Shown here: positions 6,861 through 63,770 of the stretch, in pieces
Layout: every line of letters begins with the position of its first letter
Position numbering within the stretch: position 1 is the stretch's first letter
Assembly: GCA_964016885.1 (NCBI GenBank)
Contig: OZ024751.1
Coordinates: forward strand, 17,856,001 to 17,920,000
DNA from: Eledone cirrhosa
Lineage: Eukaryota
Reading direction: 5' to 3'
Length of the DNA stretch: 64,000 nt
Program-made: the position numbers and the translations under genes
The notes under the pieces: generated by a model
What the model was told of the DNA's origin: nothing
The model's input: the letters and a program-made list of their open reading frames with translations, nothing else
Databases searched by the model: none

Positions 6861-6865
<5 letters not shown>

Positions 6866-7066
6866 CGAAGGAAATGTGGTAAGGAACCAGATGGATCATA
6901 ACGCACCAAAGTACTCAATACTTAGGGTAGTAGAGTGGGTAATAGGAACGAGTAGGAGCCCGACGGCTGAGCTCAACCCGTTTCGACGGCTAATTCTGGA
7001 CTAAATTTAGTCCAGAATTAGCCGTCGAAACGGCTTGAGCTCAGCCGTCGGGGTCCTACTTGTTCC

Positions 7067-7068
<2 letters not shown>
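6861..7068 (-). mobile_element. Fold-back family A copy 2
   Basis: Same tail and palindrome (6942-7068) as 85-300; (TA)n flanks. Confidence 0.75.
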
Positions 7069-7094
<26 letters not shown>

Positions 7095-7097
<3 letters not shown>

Positions 7098-7332
7098 AAC
7101 AAAGAAGGTGTGGTAAGTTACCAGGCGGACCATAGCGCACCAGAGTACTCGATACTTAGCGTAGTAGAGTGGGTAATAGGAAAAATAATCAGGGCCCCGA
7201 CGGCTGAGCTCCGGCAGTTTCGACAGCTAGAACCTAACTAAGCCAGCACTATTCAATACTGCTGGCTTAGTTCGGATCTAGCCGTCGAAACGGCTAGAGC
7301 TCAGCCGTCGGGGTACTGACTGTTTTCCCTAT
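7095..7332 (-). mobile_element. Fold-back family A copy 3 (diverged, longer central stem)
   Basis: gccgtcgaaacggctagagctcagccgtcgggg arm and shared tail; starts in (TA)n. Confidence 0.7.
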
Positions 7333-12351: not shown

Positions 12352-12352
12352 A

Positions 12353-12890
<538 letters not shown>

Positions 12891-13211: not shown

Positions 13212-16200
13212 CTATAGTCTGATGTAGAGTGAAGGCCCATTCACACGGGCCATTCTCGCCACTTTCACCCATCTTTCATAGAAACGGCTGGGGTGCAGCA
13301 CCTCTCTCTCCATCCTGATCCTTCTTCCGAAATGATATCGGAAGAAACGGACCAGTTGTTGGCCAGAGAGAAAGGTGCCCGACCTCAGTCCTTTCAGACG
13401 CGTCCACCATACAACCTCTTTCGCCATGGCTATTACGCACAGAAACACCGCCTCTGCTTCATCTTTGAAGGGGGGAGGCGGCTTGATCATTACAATCGAC
13501 TCGGTGGTCAACCGGATCGGTCCCACCCTTGACAGCAGTTGTTCGACATAGCCCCACAGATCGGCTACGCCCGAGCAGTGTACTAATGCGTGTGCAACGG
13601 TTTCCTCGTCGCACACGCATCTGGGACAGATCTTTTTGGCGGGGTCCCTACCCGGGCGCCCGTGTCTGTAGAGCCTTTCTCGAACGGGTAAAGCCCCTCG
13701 GTAGCACTGCCAGGCCAGGGACTTCTGGAAGTTGTCCATAGGTCCCGGGCTGAATGTCCTACCGAACAGGCTGGCCAGTTCGTCCTCCTCCATGTCTAGG
13801 GCTTCTCCGAGGGCGTCGTCGCACCTGCTGCGTACCAGCCCTCTATAGAATGTTGCGGTGGAGTCTCCACTGATAACCGGATCCGCCTGCCAGAGGGCGG
13901 TGAGCGCCTGGGCACACTCAGTGTGCCAGGCGCCCAGTTTTCTCGGTCTTTGCTTGACCCAGGATTGCAGCTCGGTGAGTGAGACGAGTTTGGGAAAGGT
14001 TCGTCTCACAAACGAGGCCCACACCGGTTGTCCGGTGAGGAATACGTAGAGGTGCCGTAGCCTTAATGCGTGTTTACGCATCATTAGCCACGGCATCCCC
14101 AGCCCTCCTTTCGAAGGGTGTTGACAGCAGATGGATCTCCTCACCATAGGAGCCCGCCTCTTCCAAAGGAATTGGAAGAGCGCGCGCTCCATCTTGGTGA
14201 GGGTTTCCCTTGGGCAGGGCACTACGGTCAGGCGGTAGTAGATGACGGACGCTATGTAGGTGTTCGCCACCTCCGCCCGACCTTTCAGGGATAGTTTGCA
14301 ACTGGCCCACTTCTGGGTCAGTGCAAACACCCTGTTCGTAACCTCCGCCCAGTTTTTCTCCACCTGGAGGTCCGGTCCGAACCAGACCCCGAGCAACTTC
14401 ACCGGGCCCTCCGTCCAGCGTCCGACGACGCTATCGGAGGGCATCGGTCTGCCCCTCCACGTGCCGAGTTGCAAACCGATCGACTTGTCCCGGTTCAGCT
14501 TAGCCCCTGTGAACTTTTCGTACTCCTCCAGTAAGGTGCCGACCGCCTCGATTTCGGAGGCCGTCGACACCATTACTGTCACGTCATCGGCGTAGGCCGA
14601 CACCGCTTTCCGCAATCCCGGTTCCAAAGGGATGCCCTGCAACAACTCCAACTTCCGCAGTAGTGGCTCGAGAGTCAACACATACAGAAGGGAGGAGAGA
14701 GGGCACCCTTGTCGGATGGACCGCGCGATTTTGAACGGCTCCGAGAGGTAGCCGTTCACCTTGACCCTAGAGCAGATGCGGCTGCTGTGCATAGCAGTGA
14801 TCCAGCCCCTGAAAACGGGTCCGAAGCCTGCCGCCGCTAGCACCGCATCCAGGTAACCATGGTCGACCCTATCGAACGCCTTAGATTGATCCAAGTTGAT
14901 CAGAGCCCCACCAAAGCCGGGTTCGTTCCCAACCCTCTCTATGATGTATCGCATGAGGTGGAGGTTGTCATGGATGGACCTGGACGGGATAGCGCATGTC
15001 TGCGCATCTCCCACCAGGTTGCCCACGACAAGCGCCAACCTCTTTGCTAGCACCTTGGCCAAAATCTGTAACTCTGTATTTAGCAGTGTTATGGGCCTGA
15101 AGTTACTTATTTCGTCCCCCTTGTTCTCGTCCTTCCTCACTAGCGTGACTACGCCCTTGGTCACAGTACAGGGAATTCTCCCGTTCTGTTGCCAGTTGCA
15201 GTAGACCGCCTCGAGGAGATCGGGGAACAAGTCCGGCATAGCTAGATATAATTCGTAAGGAAGACCATCGAGACCCGGGGATTTGCGTTTGCCGCATTGG
15301 CTCAGCACGTCCTCTATCTCAGCGGCCGAAATCGGCTCCTCGCAGGACTTCGCCTCCCTGTCCGAGAGGCGCGGCAGGCCGTCGAGGTATGGACCGAAGT
15401 CCACGTTCCCAACCGGCTCCCCGCCCCTCCCGAACAGTCGGGCAAAGTGCCTTTGAAAGGCCTCACACATCTGCTTAGGCTCAAGAATCGCCCGTCCATC
15501 CAGGACTTGCAAAGACCGGATGGTGGATTTAGTTCCACTGTTGGCCTCTGTCACGCGGGCCCAGCTAACAGCTTTGGTCCCCTCGTTCCCTAGAGCACGT
15601 ATTTTACTTCGGACAACGCAGCCTTCGTGCTTCGCGTCGAAAAACTGGCTCAACGCCGTTCTCGACGCTAGCACTCTGGCCACGTCGCCGCTTCTAATTG
15701 CCTCTTCTACTCTATCTATTAGCTCCCTTTCCTTCCTATTCCTATCCGCAGCTAGAACCTTACTAAATTCTATCGAGACTACTCTAATCTCTCTCTTTAG
15801 AGATACCCACCACCTGCTGTTGACGATCGCTCCAGTCAACCGTTCCTTAACTAACGTACTAATCCGATTCCTGTAGGCTCTACTTGCCGGCAAGGACAAG
15901 TTGAGCTTCCAGTAACCGGGGCCCTGTCTATGAGTTCTGTCAAGGTTGACCATGCAGGTCACTAATTTGTGGTCTGAATAGCCAACAATGCGCATTTTTG
16001 GACAACTTAAAAAGTCCTTATCCTTAATTCTAACTAAGAACCTATCTAGGTACGACCTAGATGATCCGCTACGATTTGCCCAAGTCCAGGTTGGCGCAGT
16101 CGGAAAATCTAGTCGATATCTATCGGCCAGGTCAAATCGACCGATTAACCCTTTGAGGCTATTACACCCCTCTCTATCGGGGCAGGCCCCTACGTAGTCC

Positions 16201-16649
16201 CAGCGTGCATCTAGGATACCATTCCAGTCCCCCACTAATAGCAAGGAGCGGGACGTCCCTAGAAAAGTCTCCAGACGATGGAAGAAGTCCGGCCGCATTG
16301 ACCCGAAAGGGCCGTAGGCGGCTACCAACCTAAACGCTCCGCCTTTACCACTGCCAAGGTCCAGAACCACTAGTCGACCCTCCGGGTCCAAATGTACCAT
16401 CTGTGTTGCGAGACCCAGATGTTTTTGCAGCAGAACGACAACTCCACCCCCACCTCCGGGCTGACAGAGAGATGCGTGCATCTCAAAGTCATCAAAGGTG
16501 GGGGCCAGCTGTCGCACGTTGCTGATCCGGGCCTCGCAAATAACCATCACATCTATACGTTGTGACCTGAGGTCATTTAGAAGCATTGCTTGCTTCCAAG
16601 TTGAGCCCAGGCCACGCGCATTTAAACAGCCTACTCTTAGCATAGCCAT
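13212..16649 (-). CDS. LINE ORF2: apurinic-like endonuclease, reverse transcriptase and C-terminal zinc finger
   Basis: APE motifs LNARGL, GDWN, LDRF, SDH; RT motifs KSPGLDG, FRPITLLN, DQSKAFD, RQGCPLS, YADD; C-terminal CPRC..EETVAHALVHC; no stops; first ATG at 16649. Confidence 0.96.
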   Translation of the reverse strand: MAMLRVGCLNARGLGSTWKQAMLLNDLRSQRIDVMVICEARISNVRQLAPTFDDFEMHASLCQPGGGGGVVVLLQKHLGLATQMVHLDPEGRLVVLDLGSGKGGAFRLVAAYGPFGSMRPDFFHRLETFLGTSRSLLLVGDWNGILDARWDYVGACPDREGCNSLKGLIGRFDLADRYRLDFPTAPTWTWANRSGSSRSYLDRFLVRIKDKDFLSCPKMRIVGYSDHKLVTCMVNLDRTHRQGPGYWKLNLSLPASRAYRNRISTLVKERLTGAIVNSRWWVSLKREIRVVSIEFSKVLAADRNRKERELIDRVEEAIRSGDVARVLASRTALSQFFDAKHEGCVVRSKIRALGNEGTKAVSWARVTEANSGTKSTIRSLQVLDGRAILEPKQMCEAFQRHFARLFGRGGEPVGNVDFGPYLDGLPRLSDREAKSCEEPISAAEIEDVLSQCGKRKSPGLDGLPYELYLAMPDLFPDLLEAVYCNWQQNGRIPCTVTKGVVTLVRKDENKGDEISNFRPITLLNTELQILAKVLAKRLALVVGNLVGDAQTCAIPSRSIHDNLHLMRYIIERVGNEPGFGGALINLDQSKAFDRVDHGYLDAVLAAAGFGPVFRGWITAMHSSRICSRVKVNGYLSEPFKIARSIRQGCPLSSLLYVLTLEPLLRKLELLQGIPLEPGLRKAVSAYADDVTVMVSTASEIEAVGTLLEEYEKFTGAKLNRDKSIGLQLGTWRGRPMPSDSVVGRWTEGPVKLLGVWFGPDLQVEKNWAEVTNRVFALTQKWASCKLSLKGRAEVANTYIASVIYYRLTVVPCPRETLTKMERALFQFLWKRRAPMVRRSICCQHPSKGGLGMPWLMMRKHALRLRHLYVFLTGQPVWASFVRRTFPKLVSLTELQSWVKQRPRKLGAWHTECAQALTALWQADPVISGDSTATFYRGLVRSRCDDALGEALDMEEDELASLFGRTFSPGPMDNFQKSLAWQCYRGALPVRERLYRHGRPGRDPAKKICPRCVCDEETVAHALVHCSGVADLWGYVEQLLSRVGPIRLTTESIVMIKPPPPFKDEAEAVFLCVIAMAKEVVWWTRLKGLRSGTFLSGQQLVRFFRYHFGRRIRMEREVLHPSRFYERWVKVARMARVNGPSLYIRL

Positions 16650-16673
16650 GTTGGTGGTGAAGAGAAAAGGCAC

Positions 16674-18262
16674 TTACCTCTCTGCGTCCCGGGTATCGGG
16701 CTGCACAATTTCCATTAGGGTGGGGGATGGGTTGTTGGGTGGGGTGGTGGTTTGTGGAAGTGTGGGGGCATCAGTGTGTTGTGTGGTTGGGGAGCTTGGA
16801 GTTGTGAGGGTGTTTGGGGAGGGGGTGGGATAGTTTTTTAGGAGGACGCGGTTAATGGGCCCGACGCAGGGGGGACCCACGTCCTCTTTAAAATTGTTTT
16901 TTAAAGTTTTATAGGTGTCCTGTGGGGCCTTAATCATTTTGAGGTGGGGGAAATCCCCTGCCTGGGTGAAGTTAGGCCCTTGTGTTTTTATTAGATTGTT
17001 GTTGTACACAATGTTTAACAGTTTTTTGTTTCTTGTATTTATGTATGTGTATGCATGTTTTTGTTTTTGTGTGGTGTTTTTTGTTTGCTGTTGTGAGCTC
17101 TTTTGTGTTGGTGTCAGTGTTATGTTTTGGGGAGGGGTTGTTTTCATTTGTGTGTCTGAGGTGTGTTTTCTTTTTTTTCTTTTGATTGTGTGGAAGTGCT
17201 CCTCCTCGTCTGACGACGAACTAGGGTCATCTTCCGCGTTGGAGGGGAGGGGTATATTTTCGGGTTGTGTTTGCGGTACGGGTGTTTTGGAAATTGTTTT
17301 TGTTTTTTGGGTGGAGGGGATGGGTTGGACATTGTTTTGTTTTGGTTTGAGCTGTGGTGGTTGTTTTTGTAGTGGTAGTTGTGGTGATTGTGTTGGTTGT
17401 GCAGTTGTTGGTGGTGTAGGCAGGATTGGGGTTTTCTTATTAAGTTGGGGACAGACAGCCCTCAGGTGACCTCTGGTTCCGCAGAGGTAACACGAGGGCC
17501 GTCTACCCTCAACGGTAATGTTGATGAAGGTTAGATCATCCAGTATGACGCGTTCAGGGATCTGGGCGATCCTTTCGGGCCTCATTTGAACTACAAGTTC
17601 GAGGCTCGTTCCACTGAACGCGTCACCCGATGCCTTTCCCATGGACACCAGCATGTCATCCTCCAGGTCCAGAAAACCTGTCAAAACCCACCATATGTCC
17701 ATAATCGGCAGGATGGTGTGGATTTTTATTTTTTGTGTTCTTCTACCCATGTACGTAGGGTAGAAGGTGTATGCGGTGGATGTGATTGGTTTGATGGACA
17801 GTTTCACTGCTGTGTCCCTGTCCTTCATGAGAATGGATAGACTCCCGTAGAGTCTATCCTTCTGAATGAAGGTGATGTCCTTCATGACGTCTTTTAAAAC
17901 CAGCTCTATCTCGCTCTGTGATGGTTGAGCTGGTTTTTTACTTTTGTTCGAAATTGTCCTAAACATGACCGTGTTTAGGAGTCTCTGGCTTTTTAGTTCC
18001 GGGGGGGAATGGATTGTGAATGAACCATTTTCCCCGTACACTATATATTTTTTCGCATCCGCCAGTAGCTCCTTCGCTTTTGTTATATCTACTGGCAGAT
18101 AGTCGAGGGTTTTCCTTGTCGTCTCGGCGAAGGAGAAATTTTGTTTGTTTGTGTTGTTGTTGTCGTTGGTGGTGTTGTTGTTATCATTGTTGTTGTTGTC
18201 ACCGTTATTGGTGTTGTTGTTGTTATTGTTATTGTTATTGGTGTTGCTTTCGTCCGTCGCAT
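16674..18262 (-). CDS. LINE ORF1 (nucleic-acid-binding, gag-like) with one CCHC zinc knuckle
   Basis: CYLCGTRGHLRAVC (17451-17492) preceded by an IPERV...ITVEGRRP segment typical of Tx1/L1-like ORF1; basic KRKKRK stretch. The 5' part of the track ORF (above 18283) is flanking microsatellite. The ATG at 18262 is one base out of frame. Confidence 0.85.
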
Positions 18263-18635
18263 ATTGTGGCAGACAAACAGACTGATAGATAGATTGAGAG
18301 AGAAAGCAAAGAAGGATGCATGTGGGATAGATAGAAAGAGAGAGGGGGAGAGAGAGAGAAAGAGTGAGAGAGAGAGAGACAAAGAGAGAGGGAAAGAGAG
18401 AGTGAGGGAGAGAAGAGAGGGAAAGAGAGAGGGAAGGGAGGGAAAGAGAGGGGAAAGGGAAGGAGAGAGTGCGTGAGTGAGACTGATGAACAATTTCGAA
18501 AATAAAGTTTAAAAAACATAAATCAACAAGTCTAATAATAAAAAAAACATAAATAACTAACAAAACTTAACAAAATATGATTCCTGAGCTGAAACGTAAA
18601 TAAGTAAATAATAATGATAATAATAATGATAATAA

Positions 18636-24030: not shown

Positions 24031-24451
24031 GAAAATCTAGTTTACTTGAAGCATTGCGTAATGAGGTATAAACGTTTGGAGTTAGAAGGCCAAAACTATG
24101 CAGGTATGGATATAGAATATAAATACAAATTCAAAAGATATCGCTGACAATTAGTCTTGTACCTTAAATTTATTTGAATATCCTTAATTTTCGAGATAAT
24201 ATCTCTTCTTCGGAGGGAAATAAAGGGGTTAATCCAGTGTTCTAATTAGCTTGCCAAGTCAATTAGCTTGGCAAGCTAATTAGAACACTGGATTAACCCC
24301 TTTACTTCCCTCCAAAGAAGAGATATTATCTCGAAAATTAAGGATATTCAAATAAATTTAAGGTAAAAGACTAATTGTCAGCAATATCTTTTGCATTTGT
24401 ATTTATATTCTATATCCATACCTGCATTGGTTTGGCCTTTTAACTCCAAAC
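24031..24451. repeat. Long palindrome (about 185-bp arms, 24074-24451) with a degenerate hammerhead motif
   Basis: Arms reverse-complementary around 24262; minus 24181-24217 reads CCCT-CCGAAGA-A-GAGAT-att-ATCTC-GAAA-ATTA-AGG. Confidence 0.8.
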
Positions 24452-30159: not shown

Positions 30160-30202
<43 letters not shown>

Positions 30203-30204
<2 letters not shown>

Positions 30205-30366
30205 TGCTATACTTTGGGAGGGTCATGTTGCCAATAAGAAACACACGCACCAGTTGATTTCACTTCCATTTATTATAATAAATTAAATTTATAAATTTAG
30301 GAATTTATCTGAAAACACACGTTTTCAGATAAAGAATCTTGCTAAACAAATTCAGAAACGAAATAT
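30203..30366. mobile_element. Rearranged 3'-end fragment of the PLE family at 49428-50655
   Basis: tactttgggagggtcatgttgccaataagaaacacacgcaccagttg matches 49493 onward; 30322-30365 is an inverted copy of 49428-49470; (TA)n flanks. Confidence 0.7.
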
Positions 30367-35512: not shown

Positions 35513-35517
<5 letters not shown>

Positions 35518-35720
35518 AACGAGTAGGAACCCGACGGCTGAGCTCAAGCCGTTTCGACGGCTAATATATATACGATATTAACAAATGGAAACTATATTCA
35601 TAAAACCATATTTATTTCATTATACATATTTCAAGGACACCAAATTAAATTATGGTGTGCTTTCATCAGACAAAATATAGTATATATCAGTTTTATAAAT
35701 AAATCGTTAATATCGTATAT
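35513..35720 (-). mobile_element. Family A arm fragment (35513-35563) next to a family B copy with hammerhead motif (35623-35669)
   Basis: Minus strand CTGATGA-AAG-CACACCA-loop-TGGTGT-CCTT-GAAA-TATGTA; 15-bp terminal inversion atatacgatattaac/gttaatatcgtatat. Confidence 0.65.
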
Positions 35721-36211: not shown

Positions 36212-36336
36212 GCAGAAATATATATAAAGGAGAACAAACCGTTAAAACATGCTTATTTAAAATACCTATTTTAAATAAACATGTTTTAACGGTTTGTTCT
36301 CCTTTATATATATTTCTCCACGTATATATATTTCTC

Positions 36337-36430
<94 letters not shown>

Positions 36431-36545
36431 AAACGAAAAATCAGTGATGCATCTGAACTCAATTTATTGTGTTACAACTGTTTCGCCGGCGGACAGCTCA
36501 AAAGATTGAGTTCAGATGCATCAATGATTTTTCGTTTTCTATTCT
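36212..36545. repeat. Two fold-back palindromes (about 36214-36317 and 36427-36542) separated by a TA/GA tract
   Basis: aaggagaacaaaccgttaaaacatg/catgttttaacggtttgttctcctt; atagaaaacgaaaaatca.tgatgcatctgaactcaat/attgagttcagatgcatca.tgatttttcgttttctat. Confidence 0.75.
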
Positions 36546-37455: not shown

Positions 37456-38642
37456 TAATTGTTTCCACTTTAGGCCAGCAAATTACTCAGTACATTACTG
37501 GTACTTTATTTTATCGACCCCGTAAGAATGAAAGGCAAAGTTAACCTCGGCGGGATTTGAACTCAGACTGTAAAGGGACGTAACTATGCTAGAAAGCATG
37601 GCGTCCAACCCTCTACCGACACTGCCAGATTTGTTATAATGTCGGATAAAATGTTTTGCGTTATTCGTCCCGGCTCTTTCAGTTCCAATCCTTCCGAGGT
37701 CAACTTTGTCTTTCTCCCTTTCGAGATCGATAAATTGGTTTAACACTATGGCTGGTTCTTCCTCTATATCCCTCTCTCACTTCTCCCCACCACACACACA
37801 CTCTCTCTCTCCATCCATCTGTTTCATTCTTTCTCCTTCCCTTCCTTTTTCCTTTTCTCTATTATTTATTTCTTATTTATATATATTTATATATGTTTAT
37901 TAGTGCTCCTTTCAGTTTCGATTCAGCCCCGTTCATAATCTTTCTCATTCCCTGCTAGAGATCTGCTGTGTTCAGTCTTAGAGACGTATGGTCTCCACCA
38001 GTTTTAACATGCCCAAGAGATGTCGTATGCTACTACGGCGCTTCTACGTTTCCATACATTAAAATTCAATCCTTCTACCATAGATTTATGTAAGACTGCG
38101 TTTTTTATGGTAATCAACGGATAAATAATTCTTAGAAATTTGAGGGAAGAGAACAATCGATTATATAGTTACGGCCCTTTACGTTCTGAGGTCAATTCCC
38201 AACGATGTTAACTTTGCATATCATCTTTACTAGGTTGATGAAATAAAATAACCATAATGCACTGGGGTCGATTTATTGGACTTTCCCTCCCACCAAAATT
38301 GTTGGCCTTGTGCCTAAATCAGAAACCATTGTGGATTGGCAGTATCGGTAGAGGCTCGGACGCCATGCTTTGACGCATAGAGTTACGGCCCTTGCCATTC
38401 TGAGTTCAAATCCCGCCGAGGTTAACTTTGCCTTTCATTCTTACGGGGTCGATAAAATAAAGTACCAGTAATACACTGGGTAATTACTGGCCTTGTGCCA
38501 AAAGTAGAAACAATTATTATAGTCTTCTATTTTTGGCACAAGGCCACCAATTACCCAGTACAAAGTACCAGTAATGTACTGGTTGATTGCTGGCCTTGTG
38601 CCAAAAGTAGAAACAATTATTATAATCTATTACCACCACCAG

Positions 38643-38686
<44 letters not shown>

Positions 38687-38930
38687 AAAAAATAATATTG
38701 GTTTCTTATATAGCACAAGGCAAGCAATTTGGGGGGAGGGGCAAGTCGATCAAATCGACCCCAGTGCGTGACTGGTACTTTATTTTATCGACCCCGTAAG
38801 GATGAAAGGCAAAGTTAACCTCGGCGGGATTTGAACTCAGATCGTAAAGGGCCGTAACTCTTTGCTGCAAAGCATGGCGTCCGACCCTCTACCGATACTG
38901 CCAATCCACCACCCGATACTGCCAAATAAT
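37456..38930. mobile_element. Dense main-family SINE cluster (minus 37456-37628; plus 37640-37740, 38165-38330, 38330-38520; tail-tail 38520-38620; minus 38695-38912)
   Basis: Consensus motifs in both orientations; short-tail and long-tail (gtcgat..aatcgac hairpin) subtypes. Confidence 0.8.
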
Positions 38931-41156: not shown

Positions 41157-41560
41157 AAGCATGGCGTCCGACCCTCTACCGATAAGAATAATTGTTTCTA
41201 CTTTTGGCACAAGGCCAGCAACTATCTCAGCACATTACTGGTACTTTATTTTATCGACCCCGTAAGGATGAAAGGCAAAGTTAACCTCGGCGGGATTTGA
41301 AGAGGTTAACTTTGCCTTTCATCCTTACGTGTTCGATAAAATAAAGTACGAGTAATGCACTGGAATAATTGCTGGCCTTGTGCCAAAAGTATAAACAATT
41401 ATTCTTATTTTGCTTCTTAAGAATAATGGTTTCTTATTTAGGCACAAGGCCAGCAATTTGGGGAGTAGGGAGGGAAAAGTCGATTAAATTGACCCCAGTA
41501 CATTACTGGTACTTTATTTTATCGACCCCGTAAGGATGAAAGGCAAAGTTAACCTCGGAA
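41157..41560. mobile_element. Fused and inverted main-family SINE fragments
   Basis: Minus head joined to a minus tail (41157-41300), inverted plus half (41302-41402), minus long-tail half (41422-41558). Confidence 0.8.
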
Positions 41561-42093: not shown

Positions 42094-43958
42094 TATTTCT
42101 TTTATTTGCCACTAGGGCATCAAAAGTGGGACAAGTACAAAGGGGGGAGTTTACACAAAAAGGCGTCCTCAATAAGGAGGAGGCAATAACAAAATATAAA
42201 AATAAAATAAGATATAACAAAAAATAAAATTTTTAACAAAATCCTCAATAGAGAGGAGGCGCCTTGGGGGGTCGCACACACCCCCGAAAAAAGTGTGCAA
42301 CCCTTCTCCTCAGGAGCACAGAGAAGGGGTGCTCCCTTGGTCTTTCATCTTCCTCACCTATAGTCTGATGTAGAGTGAAGGCCCATTCACACGGGCCATT
42401 CTCGCCACTTTCACCCATCTTTCATAGAAACGGCTGGGGTGCAGCACCTCTCTCTCCATCCTGATCCTTCTTCCGAAATGATATCGGAAGAAACGGACCA
42501 GTTGTTGGCCAGAGAGAAAGGTGCCCGACCTCAGTCCTTTCAGACGCGTCCACCATACAACCTCTTTCGCCATGGCTATTACGCACAGAAACACCGCCTC
42601 TGCTTCATCTTTGAAGGGGGGAGGCGGCTTGATCATTACAATAGACTCGGTGGTCAACCGGATCGGTCCCACCCTTGACAGCAGTTGTTCGACATAGCCC
42701 CACAGATCGGCTACGCCCGAGCAGTGTACTAATGCGTGTGCAACGGTTTCCTCGTCGCACACGCATCTGGGACAGATCTTTTTGGCGGGGTCCCTACCCG
42801 GGCGCCCGTGTCTGTAGAGCCTTTCTCGAACGGGTAAAGCCCCTCGGTAGCACTGCCAGGCCAGGGACTTCTGGAAGTTGTCCATAGGTCCCGGGCTGAA
42901 TGTCCTACCGAAAAGGCTGGCCAGTTCGTCCTCCTCCATGTCTAGGGCTTCTCCGAGGGCGTCGTCGCACCTGCTGCGTACCAGCCCTCTATAGAATGTT
43001 GCGGTGGAGTCTCCACTGATAACCGGATCCGCCTGCCAGAGGGCGGTGAGCGCCTGGGCACACTCAGTGTGCCAGGCGCCCAGTTTTCTCGGTCTTTGCT
43101 TGACCCAGGATTGCAGCTCGGTGAGTGAGACGAGTCTGGGAAAGGTTCGTCTCACAAACGAGGCCCACACCGGTTGTCCGGTGAGGAATACGTAGAGGTG
43201 CCGTAGCCTTAATGCGTGTTTACGCATCATTAGCCACGGCATCCCCAGCCCTCCTTTCGAAGGGTGTTGACAGCAGATGGATCTCCTCACCATAGGAGCC
43301 CGCCTCTTCCAAAGGAATTGGAAGAGCGCGCGCTCCATCTTGGTGAGGGTTTCCCTTGGGCAGGGCACTACGGTCAGGCGGTAGTAGATGACGGACGCTA
43401 TGTAGGTGTTCGCCACCTCCGCCCGACCTTTCAGGGATAGTTTGCAACTGGCCCACTTCTGGGTCAGTGCAAACACTCTGTTCGTAACCTCCGCCCAGTT
43501 TTTCTCCACCTGGAGGTCCGGTCCGAACCAGACCCCGAGCAACTTCACCGGGCCCTCCGTCCAGCGTCCGACGACGCTATCGGAGGGCATCGGTCTGCCC
43601 CTCCACGTGCCGAGTTGCAAACCGATCGACTTGTCCCGGTTCAGCTTAGCCCCTGTGAACTTTTCGTACTCCTCCAGTAAGGTGCCGACCGCCTCGATTT
43701 CGGAGGCCGTCGACACCATTACTGTCACGTCATCGGCGTAGGCCGACACCGCTTTCCGCAATCCCGGTTCCAAAGGGATGCCCTGCAACAACTCCAACTT
43801 CCGCAGTAGTGGCTCGAGAGTCAATACATACAGAAGGGAGGAGAGAGGGCACCCTTGTCGGATGGACCGCGCGATTTTGAACGGCTCCGAGAGGTAGCCG
43901 TTCACCTTGACCCTAGAGCAGATGCGGCTGCTGTGCATAGCAGTGATCCAGCCCCTGA
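42094..43958 (-). mobile_element. 5'-truncated copy of the Tx1/L1-like LINE with 12-bp TSD
   Basis: Nearly identical to 12948-14812; TSD TAATACAAGATA at 42082-42093 and 43959-43970. Confidence 0.95.
42358..43958 (-). pseudogene. ORF2 C-terminal half (RT YADD region and zinc finger), lacking its own start
   Basis: Protein identical to ORF2 from RGWITAM onward except one K/R change; the N-terminal MLYLLSCII of the track ORF comes from flanking DNA. Confidence 0.9.
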
Positions 43959-44289
43959 TAATACAAGATAGAAGATATAACACTGTGGGGAATGAAAGAT
44001 ATGACTAGGAGAATATATGACGTTGTGAGTAATTAAAGATTATAACTCAGAGAATATATGACGCTGTGCGGAATGAAAGATATGATTTTGTGAAGAATGA
44101 AAATATAAGAAAATATTTGACGTTTTGAAAAGTAACAACATAATAAATGATTTTGCGTTCTTTTCCGCGAAGCGTAGCCCCACACTGGCGCACCCTAGAC
44201 CCAGAGCCCATCAATCTCCCCTTCCGCTGCCCTCCCATTATTCTGTGACCCTAGAGCACTTGCCTTTTCCTTCCTTTTCCGTGTTTGAA

Positions 44290-44458
44290 TAATAATTGTT
44301 TCTACTTTTGGCACAAGGCCAGCAATTATCCCAGTGGTACTTTATTTTATCGACCCCGTAAGGATGAAAGGCAAAGTTAACCTCGGCGGGATTTGAACTC
44401 AGAATGGAAAGGGCCATAACTCTATGCGTCAATGCATGGCGTCCGACCCTCTACCGAT
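44290..44458 (-). mobile_element. Main-family tRNA SINE
   Basis: Consensus motifs. Confidence 0.85.
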
Positions 44459-45049
44459 GCAAAGATATTTTTATATAAGTTAAGTTGTCGAGAAAAATAA
44501 ATTTCTAAGTACGAAACCAGTCATGGTCAATAAATTAATGTACCCGAGTTGATAAAATAAAGTACACAGGGCTATAAAATAAAGTACCCAAGGCTATAAA
44601 ATAAAGTACCCAGGGTAATAAAATAAAGTACCTAGGGTAATAAAACAAACTGCTCGGAGCAATAAAAAAAAATTAAGTGCCAGTTAAGAATTAAAAGTCG
44701 GTGTAATATAGATGTAATATAACTACAAGGCACCATAGATGTGAATGAAATGATTTTAGATGAGGGAGACTAAAGAGTTCGCTTGACATCCTTCCGGGAT
44801 TCAATTTAATTGTATCTTCCTTCCAATAAGATTTATATAGATTTTTTACCTATGTAAGAAATTCTTATTTTTATAAAGAATTATTTACATTATGTTAGAT
44901 ATATTCGTCATCGCATCAACATAATCATCATCGTCATCGTCATCATCATCATAAACATTATCTTCATCATAAACATTATCTTCATCATCATTATCATCAT
45001 AATCTCCATCAATATTATTAGATTTATTGTTGTTATTATTATTTAATGG

Positions 45050-45200
45050 TGGATTTTGCAGTATTGCTAGAGGGTCGGACGCCATGCTTTGCAGCAAGGA
45101 GTTGCGGCCCTTTATGGTCAGATTTCAAATCCCACCGAGGTTAACTTTGCCTTTCATCCTTACGATAATTGCTGGCCTTGTGCCAAAAGAAGAAATGATT
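45050..45200 (+). mobile_element. Main-family SINE with internal deletion
   Basis: catccttacg joined directly to ataattgctggcc. Confidence 0.75.
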
Positions 45201-48453: not shown

Positions 48454-48647
48454 TAGATAGATAGATAGGGCGGTGCCCCAGCATGGCCTCAGCCGGATGG
48501 CTGAAACAGGTAAAAGAGTAAGATAACACATTTCTCTTACTGGTAATAAGGTAGTAATAAATTACTGACCTTCCCTGTTTATAGTTGTTTATAGTATAGT
48601 ATATACATAACTATAAATAGTATCTTTAATATTATATATATATATTT

Positions 48648-48814
48648 AGGAAAAAGTATGACCCCGATGGCAGAGCTCAAGCCGTTTCGACGGCTATTTC
48701 TGGACTGAAATAGCCGTCGGGGTCATACTTTTTTCTATTTCCCACTCTACTACCCTAAGTATTGAGTACTCTGGTGCGTCATGATCCATCTGGTTCCTTC
48801 CCACATTTCCTTTG

Positions 48815-48865
<51 letters not shown>

Positions 48866-49053
48866 AACGAGTAGAACCCCGACGGCTGAGCTCAAGCCGT
48901 TTTGACGGCTAATTCTAGTTCAGAATTAGCCGTCGAAACGGCTTGAGCTCAGCCGTCGGGGTCCTACTCGTTCTTATTACCCACACTACTACCCTAAGTA
49001 TTGAGTACTTTGGTGCGTTATGGTCCACCTGGTTCCTTACCACATTTCCTTCG

Positions 49054-49056
<3 letters not shown>
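48648..49056 (+). mobile_element. Two tandem family A fold-back copies (48648-48817, 48861-49056)
   Basis: Short inverted arm plus long arm ending ...ccttcgtta(ta)n or ...cctttgtta(ta)n. Confidence 0.75.
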
Positions 49057-49123
<67 letters not shown>

Positions 49124-49262
49124 TTATCCAATAAACAACTTAATATAATTATTCCATTACCCAAGGTTTCATACAGTTTTAGGAAGCCGTAACTATGCTA
49201 ACACGGGGGGGGGGGGGGGGCTAACGCCGTCTGGTGATGTCCAGCAGAAGCATGGGGGACAA

Positions 49263-49304
49263 CCGTCTAAGCATTTCAGGCTTAACTGGCCTTCGTCAGG
49301 ACGG
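49263..49304 (-). ncRNA. Minimal type I hammerhead ribozyme motif
   Basis: CCGUC-CUGACGA-AGGC-loop-GCCU-GAAA-UGC-UUA-GACGG: 5-bp stem I, 4-bp stem II, canonical core; partly duplicated in the palindrome 49287-49359. Confidence 0.75.
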
Positions 49305-49368
49305 TCCCTCCCACCGCTTGCGACGCAGGCGTTGGGAAGGACCGTCCTGACGAAGGCCATATACATAC

Positions 49369-49430
<62 letters not shown>

Positions 49431-49643
49431 CGTTTCTGAATTTGTTTAGCAAGATTCTTTATCTGAAATCGTGTGTTGAAACCGATATTGTTATACTTTG
49501 GGAGGGTCATGTTGCCAATAAGAAACACACGCACCAGTTGCTTTCACTTCAATTTAATTTAATATATATTTATAAATTTACAAATTTATAAATTTCTGGT
49601 TGGTTGGTTGGTTCCACAACCAGATAGTTGTTTATATATATAT

Positions 49644-49688
49644 AGTCATAGTTCTTTCGTCACACACTCTGTGACCTCTTCAGTGACT
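49644..49688 (-). ncRNA. Hammerhead ribozyme motif (left-arm copy)
   Basis: Exact reverse complement of 50452-50496. Confidence 0.8.
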
Positions 49689-50451
49689 GGGGATTTCTTT
49701 CTTCGTTTCTGTGCCTTTCCTTTCTTCTATCCTACGCCATTTTGTTTGTGTGTGGGTTGCGTGCTCAGTTTGCGCATGCGCCACATCCGGGTGTCTGTGT
49801 GTGTTTGTGTTCATTTTTCTATTTTTCTATTTTTATATTTATATTTGTTTGTTTATTTATTTATTTATTGTTGGTTGGTTGTTTGTTCTATGTGTGTGTG
49901 TGTTTTCATTTTGTCTTGTGTGTGTTTTCATTTTGTGTGTGTTTTCAATTGTAAGTTGTTTATATATGTGTGTGTGTGTTTTCATTTTGTCCTTAATTGT
50001 AAGTTGTGATGTTGCTGTTCCACTCATATTTTCTATTTAATTTTGGTTTTAATTCTTTTATGCTTAATTCTTTTATGCTTAAAAGAATTAAAACCAAAAT
50101 TAAATAGAAAATATGAGTGGAACAGCAACATCACAACTTACAATTAAGGACAAAATGAAAACACACACACACATATATAAACAACTTACAATTGAAAACA
50201 CACACAAAATGAAAACACACACAAGACAAAATGAAAACACACACACACATAGAACAAACAACCAACCAACAATAAATAAATAAATAAACAAACAAATATA
50301 AATATAAAAATAGAAAAATAGAAAAATGAACACAAACACACACAGACACCCGGATGTGGCGCATGCGCAAACTGAGCACGCAACCCACACACAAACAAAA
50401 TGGCGTAGGATAGAAGAAAGGAAAGGCACAGAAACGAAGAAAGAAATCCCC

Positions 50452-50496
50452 AGTCACTGAAGAGGTCACAGAGTGTGTGACGAAAGAACTATGACT
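50452..50496 (+). ncRNA. Minimal type I hammerhead ribozyme motif
   Basis: AGUCA-CUGAAGA-G-GUCACA-gagug-UGUGAC-GAAA-GAA-CUA-UGACU; stem I 5 bp, stem II 6 bp, predicted cleavage after 50491. Confidence 0.8.
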
Positions 50497-51168
50497 ATAT
50501 ATATATAAACAACTATCTGGTTGTGGAACCAACCAACCAACCAGAAATTTATAAATTTGTAAATTTATAAATATATATTAAATTAAATTGAAGTGAAAGC
50601 AACTGGTGCGTGTGTTTCTTATTGGCAACATGACCCTCCCAAAGTATAACAATATATATATATATATATTAGAGAAGGCGCCTGCCTGAATGTTTAGAGA
50701 ATTAGACACTTTATTTCCCGTTGCTTATTCTACCTGGAGTTGCGATCGATAGATAGTATTAGCAATTGGAAAGACCCATGGAAACATAGTTTCCTCGGTC
50801 AGATTTGACGAAAGTCGATCGACAAAAAAAAAAAAAATTAGAGAATTTCATCCCTTCTTCTAGTCGCATGTATTTTAGTTATCCATTATATGTATGTACA
50901 AATGAATCCGTAATACCTGGTAGAGTCATAGCGACATCGAAGTGACATAATGGCGTATCTTGCTCTTGGATACTTCAAACCTTGCTAGCCCATTCCCTGT
51001 CCGTCCCTGAACACAGCCGAATTCTTTTACAGAGATTCAAATTTACATTTATTCTTCAGAAATCGATAGAATAAAGTACCATTCAGGTATTGGGGTCGAC
51101 TTTATCGGCTTTCCCCTCCCCTATATTGCGAGATTTCCACCTAAAATATCATATAATTTATTATGACA

Positions 51169-51251
51169 TATTGGGTCGTCAAGTATGGAATTTGTAGAAG
51201 TATTTAGAAACAAAACAAATTTATACAAATGTCATACTTGACGACCCAATA
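51169..51251. mobile_element. Mariner/Tc1-type MITE copy 2
   Basis: TATTGGGTCGTCAAGTATG / CATACTTGACGACCCAATA. Confidence 0.75.
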
Positions 51252-51329
51252 TTTGTTGTTATACACACATTTATTTATCGTTTATGTTAGTCTTCCCTCA
51301 ATCTTTCATGCATTAAATGTTCATTCCTT

Positions 51330-52210
51330 GATTGGCAGTATCGGTAGAGGGTCGGACGCCATACTTTACAACATAGAGTTACAGCCCTTTACGGTCTCAG
51401 TTCAAATCCAGTCGAGGCTAACTTTGCCTTTCATCCTTAAAGGGTCGATAAAATAAAGTTCCAGTAATACACTGAGATAATGGCTGGCCTTGTGCCAATG
51501 GCATTATCGGTAGAAGGTTGGACGCAATGCTTTGCAGCATAAAGTTACGGCCCTTTGCGGTCTTAGTTCAAATCCCATCGAGGTCAACTTTGCCATAATC
51601 CTTACGGGGTCGATAAAATAAAGTACCAGTAATACACTGATATAATTGCTGGCCTTGTGCCAAAAGTAGAAACAATTGTACTTTAATTCGTTGAGTGGCA
51701 GTATTGGTTGAAGGTCGGACGCTATGCTTCGCAGCATAGAGTTAAGGCCCTTTACGGTCTCAGTACAAATCCCGCCGAGGTCAACTTTGCCTTTTAATCC
51801 TTACGGGGTCGATGAAATAAAGTACCAGTAATGCACTGGGATAATTATTGGCCTTGTGCGAAAAGTAGAATGAATTATATTTTCATTCATTCAATATTAT
51901 ATTTTAGTTATTTCATTCAATATCTTCCTTCTTTATTTTCTTTCAACCGTTTTTTCTTTCATTCAATTATTTCTTTCACACTTTCAACTTCACATTCATT
52001 AAATTTTGGCAGTATCGGTAGAGGGTGAGACGCCATGCTTTGCAGCATAGTGTTACGGCCCTTTACGACCTGAGTTCAAATGCAGCCGAGGTTAACTTTC
52101 ATACTTACATGGTCGATAAAATAAAGTACCAGTAACGTGCTGAGGTCGATTTAATCGCCTTACCCCTCGCCCAAAATTGCTGGCCTTGTCCCTAAATTAG
52201 AAACCATTAA
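51330..52210 (+). mobile_element. Four head-to-tail main-family SINEs
   Basis: Heads at about 51331, 51499, 51696 and 52006, each followed by the B box and tail. Confidence 0.85.
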
Positions 52211-54324: not shown

Positions 54325-54327
<3 letters not shown>

Positions 54328-54519
54328 TGAGATTCTACAGGACTAGAACTGTTTCATTCTTTAGAAATCATCAGGAATCTCATCAGAGATTCCTGATGAT
54401 TTCTAAAGAATGAAACTGATCTAGTCCTGTAGAATCTCATCTATATTAAAACTTTTATACTCTGCAATGTATTGAGTACCTTACTTACTGTGGTTACCTC
54501 CGATTCAACCCGGAATAAC

Positions 54520-54521
<2 letters not shown>
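54325..54521 (+). mobile_element. Fold-back element with hammerhead-like core (54393-54416)
   Basis: Palindrome 54325-54442; CTGATGA-tTTC-taaa-GAAt-GAAAC; the tail ends in (TA)n. Confidence 0.6.
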
Positions 54522-63564: not shown

Positions 63565-63567
<3 letters not shown>

Positions 63568-63770
63568 ACGAAGGCGATGTGGTAAGGAATTAGATGGACC
63601 ATAACGCACCAGAGTACTCAATACTTAGGGTAGTAGAGTGGGTAATAGGAAAATGTATAACCCCAACGGCAGAGCTCAAGCCGTTTCGACAGCTATTTCT
63701 GTATTCTGGAGTCCAGAAATAGCCGTCGAAATGGCTTGAGCTCTGCCGTCGGGGTCATACATTTTCCTAC
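63565..63770 (-). mobile_element. Fold-back family A copy 7
   Basis: Same tail and palindrome (63645-63769). Confidence 0.75.

Follow-up and report, generated by a model that had tools for sequence, protein, structure and literature searches.

Introduction

An inverted, 5′-truncated copy together with a one-sided tail has been called typical of Penelope-like elements (PLEs), for which (TA)n is a listed target (PMC8557442; here and throughout, comparisons draw on parts of the cited papers). The Adineta vaga elements Pen2a_Av and Pen3a each carry an adjacent inverted head-to-head copy, a one-sided tail and a palindrome at the junction (PMC3846280). Penelope-13_HM of the Hydra clade has a 5′ inverted truncated copy of 966 nt, a hammerhead ribozyme on both strands and a (TA)n target (PMC8557442 supplement), and opposite-strand hammerhead pairs lying about 100–700 bp apart are on record (PMC4209133). 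In PAc, the Poseidon element of Anolis carolinensis, the target is AT-rich and the tail is delimited by two end points that lie within the 5′ portion of the open reading frame (ORF), with the hammerhead upstream of them (PMC11167929). The origin of the tandem and inverted structures of PLEs is named an open question in PMC8557442; the in vitro work on PAc explains the tail, and the inversion is not addressed in the part of that paper considered here. We describe a palindrome of this kind in Eledone cirrhosa. It lies in a window of 64,000 nt, the whole stretch of DNA that we analyzed (contig OZ024751.1 of assembly GCA_964016885.1, positions 17,856,001 to 17,920,000 of the forward strand; coordinates below count from its first letter).

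The layout of this palindrome, opposite-strand hammerheads included, is already published for PLEs. A preliminary description made from the sequence alone had proposed that a PLE inserted here very recently, together with an inverted 5′ copy, and both the anatomy of the locus and a second family copy that shares its end points support that proposal. We hold a PLE origin to be very likely: the palindrome works like, and very probably is, the stub of an endonuclease-positive (EN+) PLE, probably of either the Nematis or the Poseidon type. With modest confidence, we favor the view that its mirror half arose as the element inserted, when the newly made DNA strand folded back and copied itself.

Results

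A palindrome with identical arms and a tail on one side

The two arms of the focal palindrome pair base by base about a center at 50070, over 576 bp each and with neither a mismatch nor a gap (Table 1), much as first described (about 575 bp, no mismatch). A general repeat search reported 583 nt at a rounded 100%, having extended into the imperfect center, which holds 2 mismatches. This center (50061–50079) comprises 19 nt that are unpaired or imperfectly paired and do not form a clean loop. The start originally given, 49428, takes in a 57-nt extension of the left arm (49428–49484) that lacks a mirror. Both outer ends abut (TA)n, the final 4 nt of the right arm carry on the (AT)n period of its flank, and the flanks beyond are different from each other. 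A target-site duplication is not readable between two (TA)n flanks, a limit that PMC8557442 records as well.

The palindrome reaches a hairpin score of 575, whereas three block-shuffled windows gave 14 at most, which excludes a chance origin. Zero differences over 576 bp bound the divergence of the arms at 0.52% (95%). Because the arms of other palindromes in the window have diverged, we read this identity as most likely reflecting youth, to which homogenization via pairing or consensus polishing could have contributed. The window itself is animal-like, repeat-rich DNA with no N and no assembly gap. Among the sequencing-run matches listed, 4 of 23 rows contain at least half of 60 words taken from the arm (shares 0.60–0.77; one organism, possibly the source, two samples, one study), which demonstrates the arm sequence in reads, not the palindrome junctions. 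Another 16 listed rows with shares of at most 0.35, among them both RNA rows (0.12 and 0.07), probably reflect simple-repeat words and carry no evidential weight; three unindexed rows fall outside these counts. We consider that the palindrome truly exists in the assembly, and probably also in the genome itself.

Each arm joins an ORF end to a probable ORF start

From the center outward, each arm passes through the end of an ORF with its stop codon, about 480 nt of simple-repeat-rich untranslated region (UTR) that includes the hammerhead, and then an ATG frame. Because it joins an ORF end to a probable ORF start via a UTR, the arm has the makeup of a PLE pseudo-long terminal repeat (pseudo-LTR). 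The ORF end and stop had been placed on both arms. Only the left arm carries the whole of SIKELKPKLNRKYEWNSNITTYN-stop, on the minus strand from 50064 to 49993 and behind a second SIKEL that stems from the duplication at the center. The plus-strand arm begins one codon later, reading LKELKPKLN, with its stop at 50147. At the outer side of the arms, the ATG at 50630 (mirror 49510), which the preliminary description missed, opens a frame into which the short arm reaches 26 nt and the long arm 83 nt. We infer that this is the true ORF start of the element, although so short an open frame is weak evidence by itself.

The motif I-x-x-L-K-P-x-L-N at the ORF end had been likened to the end of GIY-YIG domains. 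By eye, three Nematis rows and PoseidonFr (Fig. S7 of PMC8557442) show the same I-x4-P-x-LN spacing, to which neither Pfam nor protein searches added a match. Of 5000 shuffles of the long arm, 25 contain the pattern, and the six frames of the window (127,996 codons) contain it twice, one of the two being the focal ORF end. Pfam returned no family for either the 23-residue ORF end or the 27-residue ATG frame. Two word-indexed protein searches with pieces of both found nothing at E ≤ 10 among their 2 and 9 candidates, an exhaustive phmmer search gave 0 of 1.84 billion representatives at E ≤ 0.001, and a protein atlas reached a best score of 0.86, a low recognition, with no parent of the pieces recovered; the protein queries had been lengthened with neighboring window codons to meet the minimum length, and at 23–27 informative residues these negatives are weak. 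A 25-nt tail motif had no match among metagenome contigs, no PLE reverse transcriptase (RT) motif was recognized in the six frames of the window, and KPKLN, YEW and MTLPK were not found in the supplement of Craig et al., in the searched text of which long runs are shortened. With no parent RT/GIY-YIG ORF found, a spacing of nine residues is what the endonuclease assignment depends on; it supports a putative endonuclease C-terminus, short of proof.

Minimal hammerheads on both strands

Both arms hold a minimal type I hammerhead where it had first been noted, with the core CUGAAGA at 50457 and 49683 and all core nucleotides present; the CUA triplet does end at 50491. Helix I has 5 bp, the core is followed by an extra G, and helix II has 6 bp beginning with G-C and is followed by GAAA, whereas helix III is reduced to 2 bp closed by a 2-nt AA loop. 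The motif thus combines the features that define minimal PLE hammerheads: a CUGANGA core, GAAA, UH, an extra nucleotide, G10.1-C11.1, a helix I of 4–5 bp and a long helix II. Those of Cervera and De la Peña (PMC4209133) are alike in their short helix I, long helix II, extra nucleotide that separates 9 from 10.1, G10.1-C11.1 and nearly absent helix III. They differ in that the consensus has H as the extra nucleotide where the focal copy has G (a G is also found in Hydra-1_oBim), and in a palindromic loop 3 where the focal one is a non-palindromic AA. The focal pair is about 770 bp apart, slightly beyond the recorded range.

The hammerheads had been called intact, which holds for the core but less well for the fold. 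Helices I and II form in the minimum-free-energy structure, but its stability is not above that of shuffles (z −1.48; 23 of 200 shuffles equally good). Rfam gave no family at the gathering threshold over the window, with no hammerhead family scoring, and at E ≤ 10 over 50380–50535 there was again no hammerhead family and a single chance match to a small nucleolar RNA (E 4.7) near the motif. The monomer is probably unable to cleave, because helix III is marginal even though the core is complete. In a dimer, positions 15.2–16.2 are complementary (G-C), the AA loop would leave two A-A mismatches, and the predicted cofold did not contain this dimer helix. In vitro, a minimal hammerhead monomer did not cleave and dimers cleaved at a low level (PMC4209133), and the PAc hammerhead required protein and was dispensable for insertion (PMC11167929).

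With the two ribozymes on opposite strands, one transcript holds one sense copy and its antisense. In either direction of read-through the antisense copy would be transcribed first, and the duplex with it is predicted to be far more stable than the ribozyme's own fold (−85.9 versus −10.9 kcal/mol); masking of the hammerhead is therefore predicted for a putative read-through RNA, and not for RNA initiated within an arm. The masking in double-stranded RNA (dsRNA) that had been suggested follows from the geometry, but it may matter little, because a monomeric minimal hammerhead of the same type failed to cleave in vitro anyway (PMC4209133).

A second copy uses the same two end points

Self-BLAST of the window yielded one further family member, likewise missed before, at 30201–30363 with (TA)n on both sides. 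Both family insertions (2 of 2) use one of each end point, and the end points are 57 nt apart. The two segments of the second copy do not overlap, unlike the focal palindrome with its duplicated 576 bp, and a fold-back hairpin stands at their inversion junction. The inner 3 bp of its stem correspond to self-complementarity at the end of the tail segment, which departs from the focal copy at one position. The next 5 nt have no source in either parental segment, and the outermost 5 nt also occur in the other segment. This is the trace that would be expected of a fold-back, a 10-nt self-extension and a microhomology jump to the other cDNA. An artefact would not reproduce the shared end points, which therefore disfavor one and are the best argument against it short of reads. 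They also parallel PAc, whose tail is bounded in vitro by two internal sites of RT initiation (PMC11167929).

Relation to described PLEs

The focal insertion shows pseudo-LTR organization, a hammerhead motif, a head-to-head inverted copy truncated at its 5′ end and a one-sided tail, all of which are expected of a PLE. The single ORF with telomerase-like RT expected of EN+ PLEs is not part of the insertion, nor is the region of the CX2-5CxxC linker, which Nematis elements have and Poseidon elements lack. It shares the adjacent inverted head-to-head copy, the one-sided tail and the palindromic junction with Pen2a_Av and Pen3a of Adineta vaga (PMC3846280). The Adineta tail measures 31 nt and the focal one 57; the focal arms are 576 bp long and identical, the ORF body is missing and no target-site duplication is readable. 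The pseudo-LTR of Adineta Pen2a includes the first 12 ORF codons, or 22 with the tail, compared with about 9 and 27 here. With PAc the focal family shares the two tail-defining end points inside the 5′ ORF part, the AT-rich target and the position of the hammerhead upstream of the end points, but the PAc ORF begins inside the hammerhead and the focal ORF would start about 135 nt downstream of it (PMC11167929).

Three other PLE clades were considered and rejected. Penelope-13_HM resembles the locus in its inverted copy, hammerheads and target, but Hydra endonucleases continue after the terminal LN with an E-x-x-S-x-C-x-H extension that is missing from the focal ORF end, which reads LNRKYEWNSNITTYN-stop instead, and Hydra hammerheads have a helix III of 3–4 bp as against 2 bp. 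The P-x-G-[IL]N or PGLN ending seen in 2 of 3 Neptune rows, a small sample, is absent from the ORF end. Naiad elements have an N-terminal endonuclease and no canonical hammerhead, whereas the focal copy combines a complete hammerhead core with an endonuclease-like C-terminus.

Other palindromes in the window

A short-loop hairpin scan of the window gave 20 matches, against 0, 0 and 1 in three block-shuffled windows; block shuffling also breaks repeats, so this comparison controls for composition only, and about 5–6 of the 20 are driven by simple repeats. Centers of 0–12 nt are common among the palindromes of the window, and 14 hand-picked ones with short loops account for 2,919 of the 64,000 nt (4.6%). 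The diverged arms mentioned above differ, for example, by 8 mismatches in 185 bp and by 4 in 59 bp. Eight of the 19 non-focal hairpins extend on one side to a microsatellite, and a ninth palindrome of this form lies at 48651–48733. Six of these nine tail-bearing palindromes belong to one short family, unrelated to the focal one, with seven copies between (TA)n (Table 1); all of these non-focal families are at most candidate PLEs.

In six of its seven copies, the short family combines a tail of about 80–100 nt with a hairpin. All six centers are different, so the mirror half is constructed afresh at each insertion. The copy at 63646–63769 has an imperfect short duplication beside the loop on its tail arm, like the focal center. 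A motif scan found no hammerhead core in this family, which is probably a non-autonomous element mobilized by PLEs.

The insertion next to the focal palindrome, at 49120–49359, was considered as a part of it and rejected, since it belongs to another sequence family and microsatellite lies in between. Its minus strand carries a motif resembling a hammerhead (core CUGACGA at 49299), within helix II of which its 36-bp inverted copy terminates, and together with its neighbors it makes four insertions in 2 kb with (TA)n between each. The palindrome at 24074–24451 has 185-bp arms with 8 mismatches, an 8-nt loop and a tail of about 35–60 nt; one of its frames resembles a decayed ORF (RDIISKIKDIQINLRYKTNCQRYLL...), perhaps another PLE N-terminus. 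A third, at 54325–54520 on a (TA)n/(GA)n border, has 57-bp arms, a 4-nt loop and a tail of about 80 nt, and contains a hammerhead-like motif, CUGAUGA...GAAA. Short palindromes without an obvious tail or family lie at 12352–12419, 36214–36317, 36426–36542 and 51168–51252.

How the mirror half may have been made

The following sequence of events would account for the focal palindrome. The element protein would nick both strands of an AT-rich target, as the work on PAc suggests (PMC11167929), and RT would begin at two internal sites of the RNA, one for each target end, where some 4 terminal nt are the same as in the target. The outer site is that of the tail, and its cDNA would extend for about 640 nt and stop just within the endonuclease end, then slip and copy 15 nt again up to the same stop. 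It would next fold back through the imperfect stem at 50061–50079 (5 of 7 positions paired) and extend on itself. Because the folded-back strand is complementary to the cDNA from the inner site, it could anneal to or switch onto that cDNA, so that the insertion closes precisely on end point 2. Devoid of RT and endonuclease, the product would be inert cargo, and any read-through transcript would form a long hairpin with the hammerhead base-paired. A plain fold-back at a 4-nt loop is excluded, because the 15-nt duplication would then be mirrored on the short arm.

At the eight short-arm ends that we examined, the repeat period of the flank enters the element by 4, 4, 0, 3, 3, 3, 2 and 1 nt. This terminal identity of 0–4 nt hints at microhomology priming, but weakly, as a dinucleotide target gives about 1 nt for free. 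In the open-access literature, we found no PLE-specific mechanistic paper on twin priming, microhomology or fold-back beyond PMC3846280.

Several observations weigh against a PLE origin or against fold-back copying. The parent RT/endonuclease ORF was recovered by none of the Pfam, protein, atlas and metagenome motif searches, and the focal tail of 57 nt exceeds the published 30–40. The RT start sites of PAc lack homology to the cut DNA in vitro (PMC11167929), in contrast to the 4 nt of identity seen here. The unmirrored duplication forces either an imperfect 19-nt fold (5/7 pairs) or a further jump, and the evidence for fold-back within the family consists of a single junction, in AT-rich DNA. 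In the short-family copy at 48651–48733, the short arm keeps a segment that is absent from the tail arm; a second, independent cDNA or a deletion at a later time accounts for this better than complete copying by fold-back does.

The 5′ inversions of L1 arise by twin priming, in which the element RNA is primed from two target ends and microhomology joins the resulting cDNAs. The second copy resembles such a product; twin priming yields non-overlapping segments and a poly(A) end, whereas the focal palindrome has a 576-bp duplication and fixed internal end points. By another route, which we consider a serious but minority possibility, two independent cDNAs of the same PLE insertion were each primed at one target end, from two RNAs on a protein dimer or from one RNA read twice, and were joined head to head by host end-joining, which would also have left the templated duplication of 15 nt. 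PAc, a predicted dimer, cuts both strands and extends them (PMC11167929), the second copy consists of non-overlapping segments, as twin priming on a single RNA would produce, and both the focal duplication and the deletion at 48651–48733 are unmirrored. Yet after some 600 nt the two cDNAs would have had to stop within about 4–19 nt of each other. Such near-equal stops call for a fixed 5′ end of the template, whereas the second copy stops far earlier, and the true fold-back hairpin of the second copy is likewise at odds with two separate cDNAs.

Self-priming on an antisense RNA template during the same PLE insertion (Arkhipova et al. 2013) is the published reading of head-to-head junction palindromes (PMC3846280), and the focal orientation is head-to-head. 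We nevertheless judge it distinctly unlikely here: it leaves unexplained why the outer ends sit on two family-specific sites in both copies, and in vitro the tail ends equal the RT start sites on RNA spanning the pseudo-LTR–ORF junction (PMC11167929).

An origin outside the PLEs appears improbable. The locus would then be a hammerhead-bearing non-autonomous element, such as a retrozyme, a short interspersed element (SINE) or a foldback or miniature inverted-repeat transposable element (MITE), or else a stub made palindromic by DNA repair, and its likeness to an endonuclease peptide would be chance. The lack of a protein or Rfam match agrees with this, as does the one further, chance occurrence of the peptide motif in the six frames of the window. 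On the other side, a tandem array, a symmetric terminal repeat and poly(A) are all absent, a tail on one side and shared end points mark PLEs, and later repair would not terminate the mirror arm at end point 2 of the family. Non-long-terminal-repeat retrozymes consist of tandem head-to-tail hammerhead units as they are described, and we rejected them because the locus has one hammerhead per strand and no tandem copy. MITEs and foldback DNA transposons are defined by symmetric terminal inverted repeats and by one structure in all copies; the asymmetric ends of the focal insertion and the different internal structure of the second copy set them aside.

Long palindromes are a known artefact class, and the arms show zero differences even in their simple-repeat tracts, but a sequencing fold-back, amplification or assembly artefact is very improbable given that the two flanks differ, that the short arm ends where an independent, diverged copy ends and that the diverged arms of other palindromes show the genome to hold and age such structures.

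Features of the window

The coordinates of the focal palindrome, of the second copy and of the short family are collected in Table 1.

Table 1. Features of the focal insertion, its flanks, the second family copy and the short unrelated family.
Feature	Position	Strand	Basis
Left flank, (TACA)n then (TA)n microsatellite target	49360..49427	.	sequence
One-sided tail of long arm, 57 nt; outer end is end point 1 (ATG frame nt +83)	49428..49484	-	without mirror
ATG frame, 27 codons (MTLPKYNNIG...), open up to tail end; putative ORF start inside pseudo-LTR	49428..49510	-	translation
Left (long) arm, 576 bp, pseudo-LTR-sized, sense on minus strand	49485..50060	-	0 mismatches against right arm
Minimal type I hammerhead, left copy (mirror); predicted cut after 49649	49644..49688	-	motif scan
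ORF end, final 23 codons and stop (SIKELKPKLN...TTYN); putative GIY-YIG endonuclease C-terminus	49993..50064	-	translation, spacing comparison
Tandem duplication, 15 nt, head-to-tail (50050-50064 = 50065-50079), tail-bearing arm only	50050..50079	+	sequence
Right (short) arm, inverted copy of 576 bp, reaching outward to end point 2 (ATG frame nt +26)	50080..50655	+	pairing
ORF-end mirror (KELKPKLN...stop)	50082..50147	+	pairing
Minimal type I hammerhead, right copy; predicted cut after 50491	50452..50496	+	motif scan, fold, consensus of PMC4209133
ATG frame on short arm, first 26 nt	50630..50655	+	end-point comparison
Right flank, (AT)n, then sequence unrelated to left flank	50656..50669	.	sequence
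Second copy, segment from end point 2 (same nucleotide as 50655)	30201..30308	-	blastn; 69/72 nt identical, best local alignment
Second copy, fold-back hairpin at inversion junction, 13 bp, 4-nt loop	30304..30333	+	sequence
Second copy, inverted segment terminating at end point 1, the nucleotide equivalent to 49428	30314..30363	+	49/50 nt identical to focal tail
Short unrelated family, seven copies between (TA)n	84-299, 6862-7068, 7095-7331, 35513-35566, 48647-48817, 48862-49056, 63565-63770		blastn

The window also contains a long interspersed element (LINE) at 13212–18566 on the minus strand, with an open ORF1 region and an ORF2 of 1153 codons (endonuclease, RT, zinc-binding), of which the best homolog among 76 matches is 69% identical. 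A near-identical, 5′-truncated second copy lies at 42358–44004, also on the minus strand, and the LINE family is young and possibly active. SINE-like repeats, which we take to be of the octopus type, form clusters in direct and inverted orientation at 37488–38909, 41182–41556, 44305–45189 and 51320–52118; they include a short-loop palindrome with 110-bp arms at 41182–41408.

Discussion

As a PLE structure, the focal palindrome is ordinary, and its value lies in being a clean, young specimen. A genome with many young two-ended copies would let counts of junctions separate fold-back copying of one strand from the joining of two independent cDNAs.

If transcribed, such palindromes would supply long dsRNA directly. 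Loci of near-perfect dsRNA were most abundant in octopus and frog in the study of Porath et al. (PMC5625713), who, in the part considered here, name the source for frog only. We put forward a broader proposal tentatively, and regard it as doubtful in its full extent: that both copies record the last steps of integration, that the palindromes need no antisense template, and that PLE insertion, in a genome so dense in short-loop palindromes, may be a main maker of perfect-hairpin RNA. If true, and given an octopus host, as the repeat types suggest, PLE insertion might underlie the exceptionally high dsRNA density and the hyper-editing reported in octopus.

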